Positions 1,103-12,951 of a stretch of DNA of 12,951 nt are shown piece after piece. Where the stretch lies: the IMG/VR virus record IMGVR_UViG_2671180662_000002, one strand, 5' to 3'. The notes under the pieces were generated by a model. That model did no database searches. It was not told where the DNA came from and was given only the letters and a program-made list of their open reading frames with translations. Each line of letters opens with the position of its first letter. Positions within the stretch are counted from its first letter, which is position 1. The DNA is from a virus. Taxonomy: Duplodnaviria; Heunggongvirae; Uroviricota; Caudoviricetes. Both the position numbers and the translations under genes were made by a program.

Positions 1103-3268
1103 ATGGCCGACGAAAACAGACTCAATTCCATTCTGTGTAAGTTTGACGCAGACTGGATGGCGAGCGATGAAGCCAGAACCGAGGCGACAAATGACCTGTA
1201 TTTTAGCCGAGTGTCGCAATGGGATGACTGGCTATCAAACTACACTACCCTGCAATATCGCGGACAATTCGATGTTGTTCGCCCGGAGGTCAGGAAACTG
1301 GTCGCAGAGATGCGCCGGAACCCTGTCGACGTTCTCTTCCGACCCAAAGACGGCGCTAATCCTGATGCAGCCGATGTATTGATGGGGATGTATCGTACTG
1401 ATATGCGCCATAACACGGCAAAGATTGCCGTTAACGTTGGCGTTCGTGAGCAGATAGAGTCAGGCGTTGGTGCATGGCGTCTGGTCACGCAGTACGAAGA
1501 CAACGATCCAACAAGCAACAATCAGGTAATCCGACGCCTGCCAATCCATGAAGCCTGCTCACACGTCATATGGGACGCCAACAGCAAGCAGATGGATAAG
1601 AGCGACGCTAAGCACTGCACGGTGATTAACGCCTTGTCGCGCAATGGCTGGAAAGAGTTCGCAGAGGATTACGGTATTGACCCGGATACCCTGCCATCTT
1701 TCCAGAATCCTAACGATACATGGCTATTCCCGTGGGTGTCGAATGATGTCGTCTACGTCGCTGAGTATTACGAGGTAGAAGAGGAGAAGGAGAAGGTCTT
1801 CATCTACCGCGACCCGCTGACAGGTGAGCCGGTCAGCTATTACCAGCAGGATATCAAAGACGTCATCGACGACCTGGCTAATCGTGGATTCATTAAGGTA
1901 GCAGAGCGCAAGGTGAAGCGTCGGCGTGTGTATAAGTCGATCATCACCTGTACGCAGATACTGAAAGACCGCGAGAAGATAGCCGGAGAGCATATTCCAA
2001 TCGTTCCAGTGTATGGCGAATGGTCATTCGCTGGTGACAAGGAGTGCTACGAGGGTGTGGTAAGGCTGACGAAAGACGGTCAACGCCTTCGTAACATGAT
2101 TATGTCGTTCAACGCCGATATTGTTGCTCGGTCACCGAAGAAGAAACCGACCTTCTTCCCTGAGCAAATCGAAGGCTACGAATACATGTACGGCGGAAAT
2201 GATGACTATCCGTACTATCTGCAGAACAGGACTGATGAAAACGGTAACGACCTGCCGATTGGTCCAATCTCCTACATGGAAAACCCTGAAGTGCCGCAAG
2301 CCAACGCTTACATGCTTGAGGCTGCCACCAACGCAGTGAAAGAAGTGGCTAGTCTTGGCGTGGATGCGCAGGCGGCAAATGGTCAGGTCGCTTTTGATAC
2401 CGTCAATCAACTGAACATGCGGGCAGACCTTGAGACATACGTGTTTCAGGATAACCTGGCTACCGCAATGCGACGTGATGGCGAGATTTATGCCTCAATG
2501 GTCAACGATATTTATGACGTTCCTCGTCATGTAACGCTGACACTTGAAGATGGAAGCGAGAAAGACGTTCAACTCTATGCGCAAGTTGTCGATTACCAGT
2601 CCGGCAATGTGGTCACACTCAACGACATTCGCGGTCGATATGAGTGCTATACAGACGTTGGGCCATCCTTCCAGAGTATGAAGGAACAGAACCGCGCAGA
2701 GATTCAGGAGTTGCTCACCAAGGTTCCGCAAGGTACTCCAGAGTTCCAGATGCTGATGCTGCAATACTTCACGCTGCTTGACGGTAAAGGCGTCGAGATG
2801 ATGCGAGAGTACGCGAACAAGCAACTGGTGATGATGGGGCTGAAGAAACCAGAAACACCTGAAGAGATGGAGATGGTGCAGCAGGCACAACAACAGCCGC
2901 AGCAGCCATCAGCAGAGCAAATTCAGGCGCAGGGTATCCTTCTGCAAGGTCAGGCTGAATTGCTCAAGGCAGAGAACCAACAGGCGCAGATTCAGGTTGA
3001 AGCTGCCAAGGTTGAAGCCCAAAACCAACTCAACGCCGCGAAGATTGCAGAAATATTCAACAATATGGACCTCGACAAGCAGGCAGAACTGCGTGAGTAC
3101 CTCAGGCTCGTAGGTCAATTCCAGCAACAGCGCAGCAAAGATGCTCGTGCTAACGCTGAGCTGCTTCTTAAAGATGCAGACCAGACTCATTCACAACGCA
3201 TGGATTTCGCGAATCTTATGCGTCAAGTTCAAATCCCCTCCGGCGGAGTAGCCGAGACACCTCAATAA
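1103..3268 (+). CDS. 1: Portal protein (P22 gp1 family)
   Basis: 721 aa. The N-terminus ([28 protein letters not shown]...[10 protein letters not shown]) and long internal stretches ([43 protein letters not shown]) closely match my recollection of P22 gp1 (about 725 aa). The C-terminal 150 aa is Gln/Ala/Glu-rich and helical, consistent with the P22 portal barrel. GGAG ribosome-binding site 5 nt upstream; start abuts the TerL stop. Confidence 0.95.
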
Positions 3269-3281
3269 GAGAGAGTTAATC

Positions 3282-4193
3282 ATGGACCAAACCACCGACA
3301 TTCAGGCTTCTGAAGAATTAACCCTGCCCGGCAATCATGCAGCGGCATCTGCTGATGGCTTAGTTGTCGATAATGCCAACGACAGCGCAGGTCAGGAAGA
3401 AGGCTTTGAGATTGTCCGGAAAGACGATGAGAAACCAAAACAAGACCCGGCAACTAATGCTGAATTTGCCCGTCGCCGCATCGAACGCAAACGCCAGCGT
3501 GAGCTTGAGCAGCAGATGGAAGCGGTTAAGCGTGGAGAGTTGCCGGAGCACCTGCGGGTGAACCCTGAGTTACCAAAACAACCAGACCCTAACGATTATC
3601 TTTCCGAAGATGCACTGGCTAAGTACGACTATGACCAGAGCCGCGCACTGGCTGCCTTCCAGCAGGCAAACAGTGAATGGCAGATCAAGGCTATGGACGC
3701 ACGAAGCCAGGCTGTCGCCGAGCAGGGTCGCAAAACTCAGGAGTTCACCCAGCAATCAGCGCAATACGTCGAGGCGGCCCGTAAGCACTACGAGGCAGCG
3801 GAAAAGCTCAATATCCCTGACTATCAGGAGAAAGAGGATGCATTCATGCAACTGGTGCCGCCAGCAGTCGGTGCCGACATCATGCGCCTCTTCCCGGAGA
3901 AATCCGCCGCTCTCATGTATCACCTTGGTGCTAATCCTGAGAAAACACGCCAGTTGCTGGCGATGGACGGGCAATCCGCGCTGATTGAACTCACTCGACT
4001 GTCAGAACGTTTAACTCTCAAGCCTCGAGCCAAGCCTGTTTCAGAAGCCCCGTTACCTGATGAACCCATTCAGGGACATGCTGTTGCTGCAAATATCTCT
4101 GCGATTGAAAAGCAGATGGAGGCGGCAGCAAACAAAGGGGATGTAGAGACGTACCGCAAGCTCAAGGCGCAACTGAATAAAGGAATTCGATAA
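3282..4193 (+). CDS. 8: Scaffolding protein (P22 gp8 family)
   Basis: 303 aa, the same length as P22 gp8. Acidic, helical, with a basic C-terminal coat-binding region ([19 protein letters not shown]) and conserved stretches such as [30 protein letters not shown]. Sits between portal and coat. GAGAGAG ribosome-binding site upstream. Confidence 0.93.
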
Positions 4194-5488
4194 TGGCATT
4201 AAATGAAGGTCAACTGGTCACGTATGCTCTGGATGAAATCATCGGAACCGTCCAGAACCTGACGCCAATGGCGTCAAAAGTGACAAAATACCCCCCTCCG
4301 GCAGAATCCATGCAGCGTTCAAGCAACACCGTGTGGATGCCTGTTGAGCAGGAAGCGCCAACCCAGACTGGCTGGGATTTAACTGGCAACGCAACCGGGA
4401 TTCTGGAACTCTCCGTGAAGTGCAACATGGGCGATCCGGATAACGATTTCTTCGAGCTTCGTGCAGATGACCTGCGTGATGAGCGTTCTTACCGTCGCCG
4501 CATCCAGGCATCCGCCAAAAAACTGGCGAATAACATTGAGTCAGCGATTGCCAAACAGGCAACTGAAATGGGCTCGCTTGTTGTTCACGATACCCGCGCA
4601 ATTGGTCCATCGACTGGCCTGCCTGGCTGGGATTTTGTGTCTGATGCAGAGCGACTGATGTTCTCCCGTGAGCTAAACCGCGACATGGGCATCAGTTACT
4701 TCCTGAACCCTGACGATTACCGCAAAGCAGGCCGCAACCTGGTAGATGGTGACATCTTCGGGCGCGTTCCTGAAGAAGCATATCGAAACGGTACTATTCA
4801 GCGTCAGATTGCTGGCTTTGATGAAATTCTTCGCTCACCGAAACTTCCGGCAGTTACCAAGTCAACCGCGACTGGTGTAACTGTTTCTGGTGCGCAGAAG
4901 TTTAAGCCGCAGGCATACACCCTTGATACCGATGGTAACAAAGAGAACGTCGACAACCGTGTTGCAACGGTGACCGTATCCTCCACCACCGGATTTAAGC
5001 GCGGCGACAAAATCAGCTTCATTGGTGTGAAGTTCCTGTCTCAGATGGCGAAGAATGTGCTGACTGATGACGCGACTTTCTCAATCACCCGTGTGATCGA
5101 TGGTACTCACATCGAAATCACGCCGAAGCCGATTGCGCTGGATGACGCGTCACTGACAAAAGAAGAGAAGGCTTACGCTAACGTAAACACCTCTCTTGCT
5201 GATACCACTCCGGTAAACGTTCTGAACGTGGCAACAACCACCGCTAACGTGTTCTGGGCTGATGACTCAATCCGCCTGCTGTCTCAGCCGATCCCGGTAA
5301 CCCATGAACTGTTTGCTGGCATGAAAACGTCTTCCTTCAGCATTCCAGGTATTGGTGTTAACGGCATCTTCGCAACGCAGGGTGATATCAACACTCTGTC
5401 TGGTAAGTGCCGTATTGCTGTGTGGTATTCAGCATGTGCTGTACGACCAGAGGCAATTGGTGTTGGTCTGCCTAACCAGACCGCGTGA
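4193..5488 (+). CDS. 5: Major capsid (coat) protein (P22 gp5 family, HK97-like fold)
   Basis: 431 aa (P22 gp5 is 430 aa as I recall). N-terminus MALNEGQ and C-terminus [13 protein letters not shown] match P22 coat, with many conserved internal blocks ([49 protein letters not shown]). Start overlaps the scaffold stop (TAATG). Confidence 0.95.
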
Positions 5489-5496
5489 TAACCAGA

Positions 5497-5518
5497 GGGA
5501 GCTTCGGCTCCCGTTTTT
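5497..5518 (+). terminator. Rho-independent terminator-like hairpin just downstream of the coat gene
   Basis: GGGAGC (5497-5502), TTCG loop, GCTCCC (5507-5512), then G and TTTTT (5514-5518). A GC-rich 6-bp stem with a tetraloop and a T-run, 9 nt after the coat stop codon. Possibly a partial terminator or attenuator inside the late operon. Confidence 0.5.
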
Positions 5519-5532
5519 ATCTGGAGACAAGC

Positions 5533-5763
5533 ATGACACACATGATCTTTCGTCATGGCGACATGAAGAAGTGGAAAGGCGTTGGCTACGACTTTGAAAT
5601 CGTGAAAGCCGAAGAGCTTCAGGAATATCTGGATGCTGGCTGGTTTTCACATCCTGATGACCTTTTGAAGGATGTTGCAGAGCCAGAGCCAGAAGAAAAA
5701 CAGCGTAAAAAGCCTGGTCGAAAACCTAAGGCGGCAGCAGATGAACCTGACAACGAAGGGTGA
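5533..5763 (+). CDS. Small hypothetical protein (76 aa) between coat and gp4; acidic core with a Lys/Pro-rich basic tail
   Basis: ATG at 5533 with GGAG 6 nt upstream (5523-5526). Translation [76 protein letters not shown]. Its 3' end overlaps the gp4 start by 23 nt in another frame. The ORF-track start at 5485 is GTG and overlaps the coat stop; I prefer 5533. Function unknown. Confidence 0.45.
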
Positions 5764-6241
5764 TTTAGTTCTTGCGGCATTACGTAAGCTCGGTGTTGCA
5801 TCAAATGCCACGTTAACCGATGTCGAACCGCAGTCTATGGAAGACGGCGTCAACGACCTTGAAATGATGATGGCTGAATGGCTTGGCGGTGATGCGTCAC
5901 CTGGTATCAACGTTGGCTACATTTTTGCTGATGCAGATGTTGCTCCGGATCCGGGCGATGAGCACGGTTTATCAAATAACGCTATCAATGCCGTCATTTT
6001 CAACCTTGCCTGCCGAATTGCTCCAGATTATGCGCTGGAAGCGTCTGCAAAACTTATAACCACTGCCAGATACGGGAAAGAGCGACTCGTCAAACTGTCT
6101 GCAATGGACAGGGCAAAAGCAGCTAAATGTAAGTCCGGTTATCCAAACCGTATGCCTGTTGGTAGTGGTAACCAGTTGGCGAAGTGGAATGGTTGGAATT
6201 ACTTCCACCGAAAGGAACCTTGCGATAACGGGAGCGAATAA
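5741..6241 (+). CDS. 4: Tail adaptor / head-completion protein (P22 gp4 family)
   Basis: Start chosen at the internal ATG 5741 ([33 protein letters not shown]...), giving 166 aa. This matches the P22 gp4 N-terminus I recall ([21 protein letters not shown]...) and its length. Conserved [15 protein letters not shown] block. The ORF-track start at 5672 adds 23 non-homologous residues and is rejected. Confidence 0.85.
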
Positions 6242-7659
6242 TGCCTATTCAGCAACTTCCGCTTATGAAAGGTGTCGGCAAAGACTTCCGAAACGCCGAC
6301 TATATCGACTATCTGCCAGTGAATATGCTGGCTACACCCAAAGAAATCCTGAACAGCAGCGGATATCTTCGCTCATTCCCGGGCATTGCCAAACGTTCTG
6401 ACGTGAACGGTGTATCTCGCGGCGTCGAGTACAACATGGCGCAGAATGCTGTTTATCGCGTGTGTGGCGGCAAGCTGTACAAAGGAGAAAGTGAAGTCGG
6501 TGATGTTGCCGGAAGTGGTCGTGTATCAATGGCGCATGGTCGGACATCACAGGCGGTAGGCGTTAATGGTCAACTGGTCGAGTATCGCTATGATGGCACG
6601 GTCAAAACCGTCTCAAACTGGCCTACAGACAGTGGATTCACTCAGTATGAGTTAGGTTCAGTTCGCGACATTACGCGCTTACGTGGGCGTTATGCGTGGT
6701 CAAAAGACGGAACTGATTCATGGTTTATCACTGACCTTGAAGACGAATCTCATCCTGACCGTTACAGCGCACAATATCGTGCCGAGTCTCAGCCTGACGG
6801 CATCATCGGTATCGGGACATGGCGAGACTTCATCGTCTGCTTTGGTTCATCGACTATTGAATATTTCTCCCTGACTGGCGCAACCACCGTTGGTGCCGCT
6901 TTGTATGTTGCACAACCATCGCTGATGGTGCAGAAAGGCATTGCCGGAACTTACTGCAAAACGCCATTCGCTGATTCGTATGCGTTTATCAGCAATCCGG
7001 CAACGGGTGCGCCGTCTGTGTATATCATCGACTCCGGTCAGGTGTCACCAATTGCCAGCGCGAGCATTGAGAAAATCCTCCGCTCCTACACTGCTGATGA
7101 ACTGGCTGATGGTGTGATGGAATCGCTGCGATTTGATGCTCATGAGTTGCTGATTATCCACCTTCCGCGTCACGTCCTCGTGTACGACGCATCTTCAATC
7201 GCCAATGGCCCACAATGGTGTGTGCTGAAAACAGGTCTGTATGACGATGTGTACCGCGCTATCGACTTCGTTTACGAAGGCAATCAGATAACGTGCGGCG
7301 ATAAGCTGGAATCTGTTACCGGGAAACTGCAATTCGATATCAGCAGCCAGTACGACAAGCAACAGGAACACCTGCTGTTTACTCCACTCTTCAAAGCGGA
7401 TAACGCCAGAGTGTTCGACCTTGAGGTTGAATCGTCAACTGGCGTTGCGCAGTACGCCGACCGCCTTTTTCTCTCTGCAACCACTGACTGCATCAATTAC
7501 GGGCGTGAGCAGATGATTGAGCAGAATGAACCGTTCGTTTACGACAAGCGTGTTTTGTGGAAGCGAGTAGGGCGCATCAGGAAAAATGTCGGCTTCAAAT
7601 TGCGCGTTATCACGAAGTCACCTGTCACTCTGTCTGGCGCTCAGATAAGGATTGAGTAA
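6241..7659 (+). CDS. 10: Tail hub / tail accessory protein (P22 gp10 family)
   Basis: 472 aa, the same length as P22 gp10. N-terminus [49 protein letters not shown] is near-identical to my recollection of P22 gp10. Start overlaps the gp4 stop (TAATG). Confidence 0.9.
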
Positions 7660-8507
7660 TGGCTGATTCGAATCTCAATGTGCCGGTAATCATCCAAGCT
7701 ACGCGGCTCGATACATCAGTCCTTCCACGCAATATCTTCTCGCAGTCGTATCTGCTTTACGTTATCGCACAGGGCACTGATGTTGGTAACGTGGCTAACA
7801 AAGCCAACGAGGCCGGACAGGGCGCTTATGATGCACAGGTCAGGAACGATGAGCAGGATGTGATTCTCGCTGACCATGAGCAGCGAATTTCTGCTGCGGA
7901 AGCAACGCTTGTTAATCATGAGGAGCGAATCAGACAGGCAGAATCAACTCTTCAGGACCATGAAACACGAATAGCTCAGAATGAAAGCGATATTTCGTCG
8001 CTTGACACAAGAGTTCAGTCGCTGGAGTCGCAGGTTTCAGACCATGAAACGCGCATCGATGCTCTGGAGTATGCAACCACACGCAAGAAGTCAGAGGTTG
8101 TTTACTCTGGTGTATCTGTAACCATCCCGACAGCGCCGACCAACCTTGTTAGCCTGCTGAAAACGCTCACACCGTCATCCGGCTCGTTGGCACCATTCTT
8201 CGACACCGTTAACAACAAGATGGTTGTGTTCAACGAGAACAAAACCCTGCTCTTCAAGTTGTCGATTGTCGGCACGTGGCCCAGCGGAACCGCCAACAGG
8301 TCAATGCAGCTAACCTTTTCCGGCTCTGTTCCTGACACACTGGTCAGCAGTCGTAATGCGGCGACAACAACCGACAACATCCTGTTAGCTACGTTCTTCA
8401 GCGTGGATAAAGACGGCTTTCTTGCCACAAATGGCAGTACGTTAACCATTCAGTCGAATGGTGCGGCGTTTACTGCCACAACCATCAAGATAATCGCGGA
8501 GCAGTGA
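7659..8507 (+). CDS. 26: Tail needle / plug protein (P22 gp26 family) with a C-terminal knob-type domain unlike the P22 C-terminus (Sf6-type)
   Basis: 282 aa. The N-terminal 60 aa ([43 protein letters not shown]...) match the P22 gp26 N-terminus, followed by a coiled-coil segment with a 14-residue DHExRI repeat. The C-terminal ~130 aa is Ser/Thr-rich and beta-like, not P22-like. Length and architecture fit the Sf6 needle (recalled). Confidence 0.88.
7872..8069 (+). repeat. 42-bp periodic in-frame repeat encoding the trimeric coiled-coil shaft of the tail needle
   Basis: GACCATGAGCAGCGAATT at 7872, AATCATGAGGAGCGAATC at 7914, GACCATGAAACACGAATA at 7956 and GACCATGAAACGCGCATC at 8040 sit at 42-nt multiples. 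They encode D/N-H-E-x-R-I every 14 residues (two heptads). Confidence 0.7.
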
Positions 8508-8962
8508 TGATTACATTCAAACCAACGCGAAACATCGACCTGATAGAAGCAGTCGGAAATCACCCTGACATTATCGCCGGGAGCAACAACGGTGATGGAT
8601 ACGACTACAAACCTGAATGCCGTTACTTTGAGGTGAACGTGCACGGTCAGTTTGGCGGCATTGTTTACTATCAGGAGATTCAGCCGCTGACATTAGATTG
8701 CCACGCCATGTACCTGCCAGAGATTCGCGGCTTCAGCAAGGAAATTGGGCTGGCGTTCTGGCGATACATTCTGACTAACACCACCGTTCAGTGCGTAACA
8801 TCGTTCGCTGCACGCAAATTCCGACACGGTCAGATGTACTGCGCAATGATTGGCCTTAAGCGTGTAGGAACCATCAAGAAATACTTCAAAGGCGTGGATG
8901 ACGTGACTTTTTACAGCGCCACACGCGAAGAACTAATCGACTTCCTGAATCACGGGAGATAG
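8504..8962 (+). CDS. 14: gp14-position protein (virion assembly / ejection-associated), assigned by synteny
   Basis: 152 aa ORF whose start overlaps the needle stop (ATGA). It occupies the slot between gp26 and gp7 that gene 14 holds in P22. I cannot confirm sequence identity from memory, so the assignment rests on position and size only. Confidence 0.65.
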
Positions 8963-8964
8963 CC

Positions 8965-9657
8965 ATGTTATATGCATTTAAGCTGGGCAGAAAACTGCGC
9001 GGCGAGGAACCTTATTGCCCTGAAAAAGGCGGGAAAGGTGGCAGTTCTGATAAAAGCGCAAAGTATGCAGCAGAAGCCCAGAAGTATGCTGCAGACCTGC
9101 AAAATCAGCAGTGGCAGACGATCATGAAAAACCTTGCTCCGTTCACGCCTCTTGCGGAGCAGTATGTTAACCAGCTTCAGAACCTTTCCAGTTTAGAAGG
9201 TCAGGGGCAGGCACTTAATCAGTATTACAACTCTAAGCAGTATAAAGACCTTGCAGGGCAGGCGCGTTACCAGAGTCTTGCTGCTGCGGAGGCGACGGGT
9301 GGACTTGGTTCGACAGCCACAAGCAATCAACTGGCTACGATCGCGCCGACACTCGGTCAGTCTTGGTTATCAAATCAGATGAGCAATTACAACAATCTGG
9401 CAAACGTTGGGCTTGGTGCGCTGCAAGGTCAGGCAAACGCCGGGCAGACGTACGCCAACAACATGAGCAGCATTGCACAGCAAAGCGCAGCTCTTGCCGC
9501 TGCTAATGCCAATAAACCATCAAGTCTTCAGACTGCAATTAGCGGTGGCACGTCTGGTGCGATTGCCGGTGCAGGTCTTGCCAGCCTTTTGGGAACATCA
9601 ACGCCTTGGGGCGCTGGTATTGGTGCTGGTATCGGATTGCTTGGCTCGTTGTTTTAA
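8965..9657 (+). CDS. 7: Ejection (E) protein, P22 gp7 family
   Basis: 230 aa. N-terminus MLYAFKLGRKLRGEEPYCPEKGGKGGSSDKSAKYAAEAQKYAADLQNQQWQTIMKNLAPF closely matches my recollection of P22 gp7. Gln/Asn/Ala-rich body and a C-terminal Gly/Ala-rich hydrophobic segment (GAIAGAGLASLLGTSTPWGAGIGAGIGLLGSLF). GGGAGA ribosome-binding site upstream. Confidence 0.88.
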   Translation: MLYAFKLGRKLRGEEPYCPEKGGKGGSSDKSAKYAAEAQKYAADLQNQQWQTIMKNLAPFTPLAEQYVNQLQNLSSLEGQGQALNQYYNSKQYKDLAGQARYQSLAAAEATGGLGSTATSNQLATIAPTLGQSWLSNQMSNYNNLANVGLGALQGQANAGQTYANNMSSIAQQSAALAAANANKPSSLQTAISGGTSGAIAGAGLASLLGTSTPWGAGIGAGIGLLGSLF

Positions 9658-9666
9658 GGGGGAATC

Positions 9667-10998
9667 ATGGCTACTTGGCAAGGAACAAACGGCGGATTGT
9701 TGGCTGGTATCGGCGGCGTCAACTCAAACGCTCCGAGCGTAAATGACATCGGCAATACGCTTCAGCTTATCAGGCAGAACAATGATATTGAGCGTTCAGG
9801 CGCTAACAATGTTGGGCTGACTGCTTTGCAAGGTCTTTCAGGTATTGCGGGTGTTTTTCAGCAGGAAAAGCAGGCTCAGCGGCAGAAAGAATTTCAGCAG
9901 GCGTACGCTAATGCTTATGCGTCTGGTGATCGCGGTGCTTTGCGTCAGTTGGCTACTCAATATCCAGACCAGATTGAATCCGTTCGTAAAGGCATGGGAT
10001 TCATTGATGAAGAGCAGCGTAATTCTATCGGCACCTTAGCGGCTGGCGCACGCCTTGCGTCATCGTCTCCAGAAGCAATGCAATCATGGCTGCAAAACAA
10101 CGCCGGTGAGTTAGCTCGTGTTGGCGTTAATCCTCATGACGTCGCTCAGATGTACCAACAGAACCCGCGGCAGTTCGGCGAATTTGTCGATCACCTGGGG
10201 ATGAACAGTCTCGGGCCCGAAAAATACTTTGACCTACAGGATAAAATGCAGGGTCGCCAGGTTACCATGCGCGGTCAGGATCTGGATTCGCAAACCGCCG
10301 CTCGGAATCAGGCAATCACAATGCGCGGACAAGATATCCAGGCGAATTTAGGTCAGCAGCGCATTAATCTGGACGCAGAAACAAACCGCATTAACAACGA
10401 AAATAAGCGCCTTGACCGGATGCTATCAGCAGAAACTAACGACCTGAAGCGCCAGGAAATACAGAGCCGCATAGCAGCCAACAACCAGCAGTTGCAGCAG
10501 AAGCAGCAAGCGCTAAATGATGGCTACAAAGACGGCATCAACACCCTCACAACCAGCATGTTCACTCTGAACGATATCGTTAGTTCTCCTTCACTTAAGA
10601 GCATTACAGGCTTACGTGGAGTAATCCCCAACGTTCCAGGCTCACAGGCTGCAGACACTCAGGCACGACTTGATACCTTTAAATCACAAGCATACCTGAC
10701 AGCGGTTCAGGCCATGCGAGGCATGGGCGCACTTTCTGATGCCGAGGGCAAAAAGCTCGACCAGGCTGTTGGTTCGCTGCAGAACTCGCAGAGCGAGGAG
10801 TCCTTTCGTCGCAACGCTGGCGTCATCCTGAACACGCTCAACCAGAAGCGTAATGAGGCGGTTGGTAAGTACGTTCAGCAAAACGGTATCAAGCGAGTGG
10901 AAGCGCCTCAGGCTTCTATAGATTACCTGAAGCAGCACCCCGAGCTGTCAATCGACTTCATTAATCGCTACGGATATCTTCCATCTTTGGGGCAGTAA
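9667..10998 (+). CDS. 20: Ejection (E) protein, gp20-position
   Basis: 443 aa, Gln/Asn-rich and largely helical, with an internal duplicated motif (VTMRGQDLD and ITMRGQDIQ, 18 residues apart). It sits between gp7 and the last ejection gene as gene 20 does in P22 (P22 gp20 is about 471 aa, recalled). AGGGGG ribosome-binding site upstream. Assigned by synteny and composition. Confidence 0.72.
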   Translation: MATWQGTNGGLLAGIGGVNSNAPSVNDIGNTLQLIRQNNDIERSGANNVGLTALQGLSGIAGVFQQEKQAQRQKEFQQAYANAYASGDRGALRQLATQYPDQIESVRKGMGFIDEEQRNSIGTLAAGARLASSSPEAMQSWLQNNAGELARVGVNPHDVAQMYQQNPRQFGEFVDHLGMNSLGPEKYFDLQDKMQGRQVTMRGQDLDSQTAARNQAITMRGQDIQANLGQQRINLDAETNRINNENKRLDRMLSAETNDLKRQEIQSRIAANNQQLQQKQQALNDGYKDGINTLTTSMFTLNDIVSSPSLKSITGLRGVIPNVPGSQAADTQARLDTFKSQAYLTAVQAMRGMGALSDAEGKKLDQAVGSLQNSQSEESFRRNAGVILNTLNQKRNEAVGKYVQQNGIKRVEAPQASIDYLKQHPELSIDFINRYGYLPSLGQ

Positions 10999-12729
10999 AT
11001 GGCTAATTACCGTGATTTGTTAGAGCAGGCTGGCGCACGTTACGGTGTGCCAGAAGGGTTGATGACTGCACTGGGTGCCAAGGAGTCTTCTTACAACCCT
11101 GCCGCAGTAAGCTCCGCCGGGGCTGTAGGATTGACTCAGGTCATGCCTGGGACATGGCGTGATATGGGTTATACCGATGAGCAAATGCAAAACCCCGAAT
11201 ATCAGGCTGACGCTGGCGCGCGCTATCTGGCAAAGATGTACCAGCAGTTTGGTAACTGGCGTGACTCTCTTCAGGCTTATCACGACGGTCCCGGCAACGT
11301 TATGAAGGCAAAGCGTGGTGAATATACGCCAGGACCTGAAGGCCGCGGTTACGTTGATGATCGCTTTGCTCAATGGGCTGGTGACCCGGTGACAGACTCA
11401 ACAGTCGAACAGCGCGCCACCTCTGCAAAGGTACATCCTCAGCAAGACCCTAACAACCCGTTTGCACAACTGGAAGTACAGTCATCCGAACAAGTATCGG
11501 CATCAGGTGTGCAGTCAGACCCAAATAATCCATTTGCTCAGATTGAGCAGCAGGCAGCCAGTCAGCAGCCACCTCAACCCGTAAGTTCTGTCGCACCGAA
11601 ACCTGTTCAGCAACAAACAGTTAATCAGGCCAATAATGCACCAACACGGGAAGAACCATCATTGATGCAACAAGCTGGCGATTGGCTCACTGGTGGTCAA
11701 AGTGCAGGGCAAATTGCAGAACAGGCTGGTCGTGGTCTGGTAAACATACCATTTGACGTATTGCAGGGTGGCGCAAGTCTGATTAATGCAATCAGTCAGG
11801 GGCTTGGGGGGCCAAAAGTATTGGATGATGTTTATCGTCCAGTAGACAGACCGACAGACCCCTACGCGCAAGCTGGAGAGTCAATAGGCGGTTATCTTGT
11901 TCCTGGAGCAGGTGTAGCTGGAAACATGGTCATTGGTTCTCTCGCTGACGCGGCGAATCAACGGGGTGATTTTGCCGAAAATGCCGCTATTAATGCCGGA
12001 CTTAGCATTGCTACGCATGGCCTGATAAATGGCGTTACCCGTGGTGTTCGTGGTGCATCAAATATAATTAGTGGCAATAAAACATCTGCACAGAGAGCGA
12101 CCACTGCGCCAACAGAAACATCACCATTCTCCGGTGATGCCGCTGCAGCAACAAATCCTGCGGTTCATGCCGCAGAGGCAAGAGTAGCACAAGGTGTACC
12201 AATGACGCCTGCGACGAAGAACCCAGAGGAAGTCGTTCGCACAGTAGCAGCACAAAAAAGGCCAAATCTCGCTTCATCGCTTGATGAACTAGATATCAAT
12301 CCTCAGGCTGAAGTTCTGGAGTCTGCTGAAAGGCTTAATGTTGATTCATTACTCCCTTCACACTTTTCCGGGAACGAGCAATACAAGGCAGTTGAGCAAG
12401 CAATCAAGTCCCGTGCGGGTTCTGCTCTACAGGTGCAGGAAAATGAAGCAATCAGGCAGCTAGCACAGGGCGCGGGTGAGATAATTGATCGCGTTTCCGG
12501 TGCAAAAGATGCTCTTGGTATGAGCGACAAGTTTATTGATACGGTCAATGGAAGAATGTCTGCGCTGATGAAACGAAGCGACCAGCTTTATCGCAATGTT
12601 GAAAAGGCGATGCCTGCAGGTGCAAAAATTGATGCGCCATCAACAAGGTCAATGCTCAAACAGGTGGCAGAAGATCTTGGCGGGATGAAAAACCTTGACC
12701 CTATTGAAAAGAGAGTTGAGGTAGCCTGA
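10999..12729 (+). CDS. 16: Ejection (E) protein at the gp16 position, with an N-terminal lytic transglycosylase (SLT) domain; the last codons and stop come from the adjacent IS inverted repeat, so it is probably 3'-truncated
   Basis: 576 aa. Residues about 8-115 carry family-1 lytic transglycosylase motifs: AKESSYNP (candidate catalytic Glu29), [10 protein letters not shown], and [10 protein letters not shown] tandem motif DPNNPFAQ(L/I)E follows. The C-terminal half is Ala/Gly-rich. The stop TGA at 12727-12729 lies inside the putative IS left repeat, which starts about 12717. Start abuts the gp20 stop. Confidence 0.78.
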
Positions 12730-12951
12730 GTTTAACGGACACTCCTTCCTGAAATAGAATGGCATCAGAAGGAGCTAATAATGAGCAGAAAAACCCAACG
12801 TTACTCTAAAGAGTTCAAAGCCGAAGCTGTCAGAACGGTTCTTGAAAATCAACTTTCGATCAGTGAAGGCGCTTCCCGATTATCCCTTCCTGAAGGCACT
12901 TTAGGACAATGGGTTACCGCCGCCAGAAAAGGGCTCGGTACTCCTGGTTCC
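12717..12951 (+). mobile_element. Left end of an IS3-family insertion sequence (IS600-like), continuing beyond the window end
   Basis: Terminal repeat TGAGGTAGCCTGAGTTTAACGGACAC starts with TG and has GGACAC at positions 21-26, as in the IS3 left repeat I recall (TGATCTTACCCAGCAATAGTGGACAC). It is followed by an AGGAG ribosome-binding site and an OrfA-type reading frame. Exact first base is uncertain by a few nt. Confidence 0.8.
12781..12951 (+). CDS. IS3-family transposase OrfA (helix-turn-helix DNA-binding N-terminal part), 3'-partial at window end
   Basis: ATG at 12781 with AGGAG 7 nt upstream. Translation MSRKTQRYSKEFKAEAVRTVLENQLSISEGASRLSLPEGTLGQWVTAARKGLGTPGS has the short basic N-terminus and helix-turn-helix typical of IS3-family OrfA. 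It resembles what I recall for IS600 of Shigella. The ORF runs off the end of the window. Confidence 0.85.
   Translation, partial: MSRKTQRYSKEFKAEAVRTVLENQLSISEGASRLSLPEGTLGQWVTAARKGLGTPGS

Follow-up and report, generated by a model that had tools for sequence, protein, structure and literature searches.

The last long ORF of the window, by which we mean the whole 12,951-nt stretch of DNA analysed here, runs on the + strand from 10999 to 12729 and encodes a protein of 576 aa. Its neighbour genes belong to the Pfam families P22_gp7 and Inj_translocase, and the upstream gene order is common to the window and the phages Sf101 and APC_JM3.2: needle/DUF2824, gp7-like and gp20-like genes, followed by the 576-aa gene in the window and by a 911-aa gene in the two phages. 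Both its orthology to Sf101 gene 13 and its position after the gp7-like and gp20-like genes identify this ORF as the gene at the gp16 position. When 10999-12951 was compared with phage records by megablast, two classes of matches emerged. Sf101 (KJ832078) and APC_JM3.2 (MG197996) match query positions 1-1718, corresponding to window positions 10999-12716, with 98-98.5% identity, and many Stx-phage records match only from query position ~1718 on. The phage-derived part of the gene thus covers 10999-12716 on the + strand, that is, codons 1-572 and the first two bases of Val573, and it is 99% identical to aa 1-573 of the 911-aa product of Sf101 gene 13. By BLASTP, 566 of 573 residues are identical to the Sf101-type protein over residues 1-573, with nothing significant beyond, and at both the DNA and the protein level the similarity (98-99%) to the intact genes of Sf101 and APC_JM3.2 ends after 12716. 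Sf101 gene 13 and APC_JM3.2 gp29 are the intact orthologues of this gene, at a full 911 aa.

The N-terminal part of the 576-aa protein is predicted to be a family 1 lytic transglycosylase (SLT) domain at aa 7-110, as judged by its Pfam PF01464 score (86.9 bits for a gathering cutoff of 21.3, E=9e-25). The SLT region also matches the structures of E. coli Slt70 and EmtA, and a PDB search with the protein for solved structures of the gp16-like body gave matches confined to the SLT domain. In PHROG 770 ('DNA transfer protein', gp16 type, 668 positions), the window protein covers positions 3-349 and the intact protein positions 3-651. The window protein does not reach the C-terminal module (positions ~350-651 of PHROG 770) that a full-length product contains, and the predicted 576-aa product is a fragment of a member of the Sf101-type gp16-position family and not an intact member.

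The point at which phage similarity ends can be read to the base. The alignment to Sf101 and APC_JM3.2 is identical through ...GAAAAGAGAGT (12716) and breaks at 12716/12717, where the phages go on with C TTT CGG GCA GTT... and the window with T GAG GTA GCC TGA GTT TAA CGG.... From codon 573 onward, the phages thus read GTC|TTT CGG... and the window GTT|GAG GTA..., so that 12715-12729 (GTT GAG GTA GCC TGA) encodes V-E-V-A-stop. On the other side of the break, 12717-12951 agrees at 235/235 nt with the beginning (bases 1-235) of the IS600 in E. coli VL40, a complete copy of 1264 bp. This VL40 element interrupts gspD, runs from TGAGG to CCTCA and is flanked on both sides by AGT, a 3-bp target duplication; its termini form an imperfect inverted repeat of ~27 nt with the ends 5'-TG...CA-3'. 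The window holds only the left inverted repeat (IRL), which is identical to that of VL40. Four IS600 copies sitting in four different sequence contexts (the window, E. coli 97-3250, gspD of E. coli VL40 and Stx2 phage EH0505) are identical from TGAGGTAGCC on, and the IS600 copies of Shigella and E. coli show no difference in the part visible in the window. In complete E. coli genomes, this 235-nt end of the window has thousands of matches, which carry the RefSeq annotation 'IS3-like element IS600 family transposase'. Positions 12717-12951 on the + strand are therefore the left end of IS600 (bases 1-235 of 1264), with the imperfect ~27-nt IRL and, 65 nt into the element, the beginning of orfA (ATG at 12782). 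The window ends inside IS600 with the first 170 nt of orfA; full reference copies carry a two-part transposase CDS. The triplet AGT at 12714-12716 is the presumed target triplet, as in the AGT/AGT flanks of the VL40 gspD copy. The window stops short of the right end of this IS600 copy, and the 23 relatives described below have all lost it.

Since the Sf101/APC_JM3.2 match ends at 12716 and the ends of the VL40 copy are fixed by its AGT duplication, the phage side and the IS side agree in placing the start of IS600 at 12717, as the original prediction had proposed ("about 12717"). This evidence is sequence identity and not a statistical pattern, so that chance is not at issue for the boundary. 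A start at 12716 was considered, a T being present at -1 in four of four IS600 copies, and was rejected because the VL40 copy would then be without a target duplication; moreover, Sf101 still matches at 12716, and the limits TGAGG...CCTCA give clean AGT/AGT flanks. With IS600 beginning at 12717, upstream of 12729, the ORF tail at 12717-12729 on the + strand (third base of Val573, then GAG GTA GCC TGA) is IS-derived: these 13 nt lie within the IS600 IRL, and the E-V-A-stop codons are its positions 2-13. The proposal that the gene takes part of its Val codon, its last codons (12718-12729) and its stop from the inverted repeat is thereby borne out. The IRL, TGAGGTAGCCTGA, contains stops in all three frames (TGA; TAG; TGA) within 13 nt, so genes entered in the same orientation gain at most three IS-encoded residues (no more than four IS-influenced codons). 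As a side observation, the insertions at 12717 and in VL40 gspD are independent events that share an 8-nt left flank, AAGAGAGT, at window positions 12708-12716, and the triplet AGT; the T at -1 in four of four inspected copies and the shared AGT may reflect a target preference or chance.

What the insertion removed is seen from the intact orthologues. The intact gene is 2736 nt long and encodes 911 aa in Sf101 (gene 13, annotated 'transglycosylase') and APC_JM3.2 (gp29), where an N-terminal SLT domain is joined to a gp16-like body. All four intact homologues checked run on past the insertion point as ...PIEKRV-FRAVNPGKNGALTYANL..., and none ends with ...EKRVEVA. DNA at least 99% identical is uninterrupted across this point in 55 complete E. 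coli genomes, one of which has a 927-aa ORF. The native C-terminus is thus replaced, as had been suggested: intact orthologues continue past Val573 and the window protein ends with E-V-A. By this comparison, 338 residues (37%) are missing from the window protein, E-V-A standing in place of residues 574-911. The lost 338-aa module recurs with 28-33% identity and 88-97% coverage (less in two records) in the other 32 matching phage records, whose proteins are of the 'transglycosylase/DNA transfer' kind and whose hosts include Escherichia, Salmonella, Klebsiella, Kosakonia, Ralstonia and Pseudomonas, among others. A Kyte-Doolittle scan of the 911-aa protein revealed no clear transmembrane helix: the segments it picked out, at 246-320 (retained) and 802-827 (lost), are glycine-rich and no more than weakly hydrophobic. 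We therefore do not claim that a 'membrane anchor' was lost with the C-terminus.

The size of this loss had been estimated at roughly 30 or more residues from the length of P22 gp16, which proves a large underestimate. The gp16-type proteins of P22 (609 aa), Sf6 (gp13, 665 aa) and HK620 (gp16, 722 aa) differ in size (PMC8954989). P22 gp16, Sf6 gp13 and HK620 gp16 share with the window gene the position in the ejection operon and the presumed role, and tblastn of the lost 338-aa module against P22, Sf6, HK620 and CUS-3 found no match. These four phages are the wrong comparators for the missing part. An alignment to gp16 homologues, the check first proposed, did locate the end of similarity at 12716, with Sf101 and APC_JM3.2 as partners; the phages named for it (P22, Sf6, HK620 and CUS-3) were unsuitable for the lost part. 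More generally, a truncation measured against P22 gp16 misleads, since ejection genes are mosaic. Compared with their CUS-3 counterparts, the injection proteins of Sf101 show identities of only 85, 34 and 32% (PMC4159516). Within the retained part of the window protein, a glycine-rich segment at about aa 221-358 is 79% identical to a 'DNA transfer protein' of Salmonella phages. The phages matched here are Salmonella phages that we take to be P22-like, and they match only at ~221-358.

The N-terminal domain points in another direction. The SLT-bearing region (aa 1-120, window 10999-11360) matches weakly the gp16-type internal virion proteins of T7-like phages, e.g. BA14; the likeness (33-35% identity) does not extend beyond the first ~120 aa, the remainder being unrelated in sequence. 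T7 gp16 combines an N-terminal lytic transglycosylase with a C-terminal part that spans the membrane and cytoplasm (PMC8954989), and the intact 911-aa protein follows the same domain logic. A 2022 review (PMC8954989) states that P22-like phages, with the gp16-type proteins of P22 and Sf6 among them, lack the N-terminal transglycosylase seen in T7 gp16. The P22 and Sf6 proteins also lack a match to the lost 338-aa module. The Sf101 type is, on its predicted domain content, a mosaic variant with a T7-like N-terminal transglycosylase and an exception to that statement, which means that some P22-like phages bear such a domain on the protein at the gp16 position.

At its other end the window is likewise bounded by an IS. 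The element upstream of the phage genes is of the IS3 family and begins with TGAAGTGGCACACTGAATTTGG; we take it to be IS911. Its right end occupies 1-61 on the + strand; further copies of 1-61 match in S. flexneri 2457T, and an IS3-family transposase gene abuts the terminase fragment. IS911 cuts off the 5' part of the large-terminase gene (47-1102), of which 351 codons are left, and the loss of the late promoter region and of part of the terminase gene is attributed to it. Phage genes thus fill 12.65 kb of the window, as an island with an IS end on either side. In single strains the island shows further decay: in 2457T the terminase fragment has broken into two ORFs (9097-10000 of its locus), and the gp7-like gene is not called in 2002017.

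The same remnant is widespread. The exact 576-aa protein was found in 1949 blocks of an assembly index, and the seven places shown are all NCBI genome assemblies, including CP001383 (2002017). A lookup with the portal protein retrieved the remnant in AE014073 (2457T) and CP000266 (8401), and the junction pattern retrieved two further genomes and four IMG/VR contigs. The gene/IS600 junction was absent from the complete E. coli genomes searched. Each of the 23 related S. flexneri sequences matches the window only as far as 12801, which is nt 85 of IS600. At 12801/12802 the relatives leave IS600 with the bases TGAACCGCCCCGGGAATCC... and enter an IS3-family element of ~1.3 kb ending ...CCCGGGGCGGTTCA, whereas the window stays in IS600. 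This ~1.3-kb element after the 85-bp IS600 stub is recognised by us as IS629. Host chromosome (psiF, phoA, iraP, ddlA) follows IS629 directly in the relatives. The flanks of IS629 there are ACG (left) and ATC (right). It thus lacks a target duplication, which fits an IS629-associated deletion or recombination better than a simple insertion. When the 10 kb on each side of all related loci were searched by tblastn with the lost 338 aa and the Sf101 tailspike, nothing was found. In the relatives, therefore, the downstream prophage is deleted and not displaced by the IS. The original prediction had expected a tailspike and immunity region downstream, separated from the ejection module by the IS. 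This does not describe the relatives, since 23 of 23 go from the stub through IS629 to psiF-phoA-iraP-ddlA and carry neither the 3' part of the gene nor a tailspike within 10 kb.

The window differs from all these relatives at its end: 12802-12951 continues as IS600 (to nt 235) where 23 of 23 turn to IS629. It shows 0 mismatches over 11,702 nt to the 2457T-type genomes. To the distinct 8401-type lineage it shows 163 mismatches, clustered at 5500-10500, and this lineage has the same stub/IS629 junction. The presence of the junction in both lineages implies that it predates their split and that the window is nested inside the clade. The 163 mismatches sit in the head-completion, needle, gp7 and gp20 genes, with nearly identical flanks, and this patch looks like a recombination from another P22-like phage in an already IS-bounded remnant. 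The exact 123-nt pattern joining the gene, the start of IS600 and the sequence past nt 85 had no match in viral contigs; a shorter junction pattern matched only genomes and contigs with the IS629-interrupted stub. We considered three readings of the window end, among which a draft-assembly path along the multi-copy IS600 after the 85-bp shared stub is the most likely. Consistent with it, in 1496 of the 1949 index blocks the longest carrying contig is 10-20 kb, the size class of the 12,951-base window. Recombination of the stub with a full IS600 copy elsewhere in the source strain could also produce this end, and the retention of an ancestral complete IS600 in the source strain is the least likely of the three. 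The truncation itself is unaffected by the choice among them.

If a complete IS600 had simply been inserted in the genome from which the window comes, the sequence beyond it would still include the gene's 3' third together with the tailspike and immunity region. This has in its favour that the window stays bona fide IS600 past 12801, where every relative switches to IS629. We nevertheless consider it improbable, given the 0 mismatches over 11,702 nt to the 2457T type and a junction common to the 2457T and 8401 types; the continuation of IS600 could be explained by an assembly path or by recombination between the stub and another IS600, neither of which restores the phage genes. Instead, we are highly confident that the locus is an IS600-truncated gp16-position gene in a dead, IS-bounded P22-like prophage remnant of Shigella flexneri, the downstream part of which has been deleted in the relatives. 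This confidence refers to the joint reading; what was observed directly comprises the two boundaries, how much was lost and what it was, and how the relatives are built downstream.

We infer the following order of events. The starting point is a P22-like prophage (Lederbergvirus, Sf101-like), of which the remnant retains head, head-completion and ejection genes. Its 911-codon gene at the gp16 position would have been entered at codon 573 by IS600, a member of the IS3 family, with element and gene in the same orientation. Translation would then run through three IS-encoded codons (Glu-Val-Ala) and end at the TGA at 12727-12729, leaving a 576-aa product that would keep the SLT domain and the N-terminal half of the gp16-like body and lack the C-terminal 338 residues. 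Later, probably in an ancestor shared by the sampled S. flexneri lineages, IS629 would have inserted after nt 85 of IS600. A rearrangement beside IS629 would then have deleted what remained of IS600, along with the 3' third of the gene and the regions for tailspike and immunity, so that IS629 now abuts psiF. This is a known kind of IS-driven prophage decay, that is, ordinary genome erosion. Shigella genomes contain many IS elements and IS-eroded prophages, and the junction is already present in the published genomes of 2457T, 8401 and 2002017.

By analogy to T7 gp16 (PMC8954989), the intact protein would use its N-terminal SLT part to cleave peptidoglycan at ejection and its C-terminal part to complete an envelope-spanning conduit. 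The non-functionality of the fragment is, like the order of events, something we infer: we regard the 576-aa ORF as a probable pseudogene fragment without phage function, since the predicted enzyme domain is kept but a delivering virion, the terminase, the tailspike and the late regulatory region are gone. Against this stands the fact that the ORF is still open in both sampled lineages. It might accordingly be argued that the SLT fragment has been retained and expressed as a domesticated peptidoglycan hydrolase or envelope-active factor, the IS providing a usable stop; across about 1950 index blocks and two lineages the ORF is open and almost unchanged, and its SLT score is well above the Pfam cutoff. 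We find this very unlikely. Such conservation is what recent common ancestry predicts, with 3 SNPs in the gene between lineages. The late promoter region and part of the terminase were lost to IS911, and neighbouring genes are broken in single strains (the terminase in 2457T, the uncalled gp7 in 2002017). The fragment has no signal peptide or export context, and in the phage the protein gets to the periplasm via ejection from the virion. A dN/dS test for selection on the fragment was dropped, because 3 SNPs are too few and the differences across the block resemble a recombination patch. Harder still to credit is an expression of the 576-aa protein, for example by read-through from IS911, and its co-option by S. 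flexneri as a cell-wall-active or anti-phage factor, even though this, if true, would explain why the ORF has stayed open across lineages. The reading of the ORF as a decayed fragment is preferred to both.

The truncated protein has left its mark on annotation. RefSeq marks open E. coli orthologues as pseudogenes ('incomplete; missing C-terminus') that end exactly at the codon equivalent to Val573; this is the case for a 927-aa open ORF in K_EC180 (locus 2054-4837) and for a 743-aa open ORF in XH992 (locus 2606-4837). Likewise, the profile of PHROG 21143, labelled 'lytic tail fiber protein', has a length of exactly 576. These features could be taken to mean that 576 aa is the natural length and that the 911-aa forms of Sf101 and of the E. 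coli prophages are derived fusions. We give this next to no credence: the ORF ends with 13 nt of IS600 that occur at thousands of unrelated sites, the intact protein fills positions 3-651 of the 668-position PHROG 770, and the C-terminal 338-aa module is conserved at 28-33% identity in the other 32 matching phage records, so that the junction alignment, the IS600 identity, the PHROG 770 coverage and the conserved module already refute it. Rather, since the RefSeq calls end at the Shigella insertion codon and PHROG 21143 has the length 576, it seems that the IS-truncated Shigella protein serves as the reference form in databases. The practical relevance of the locus thus lies in annotation, the truncated 576-aa product being very abundant in databases.
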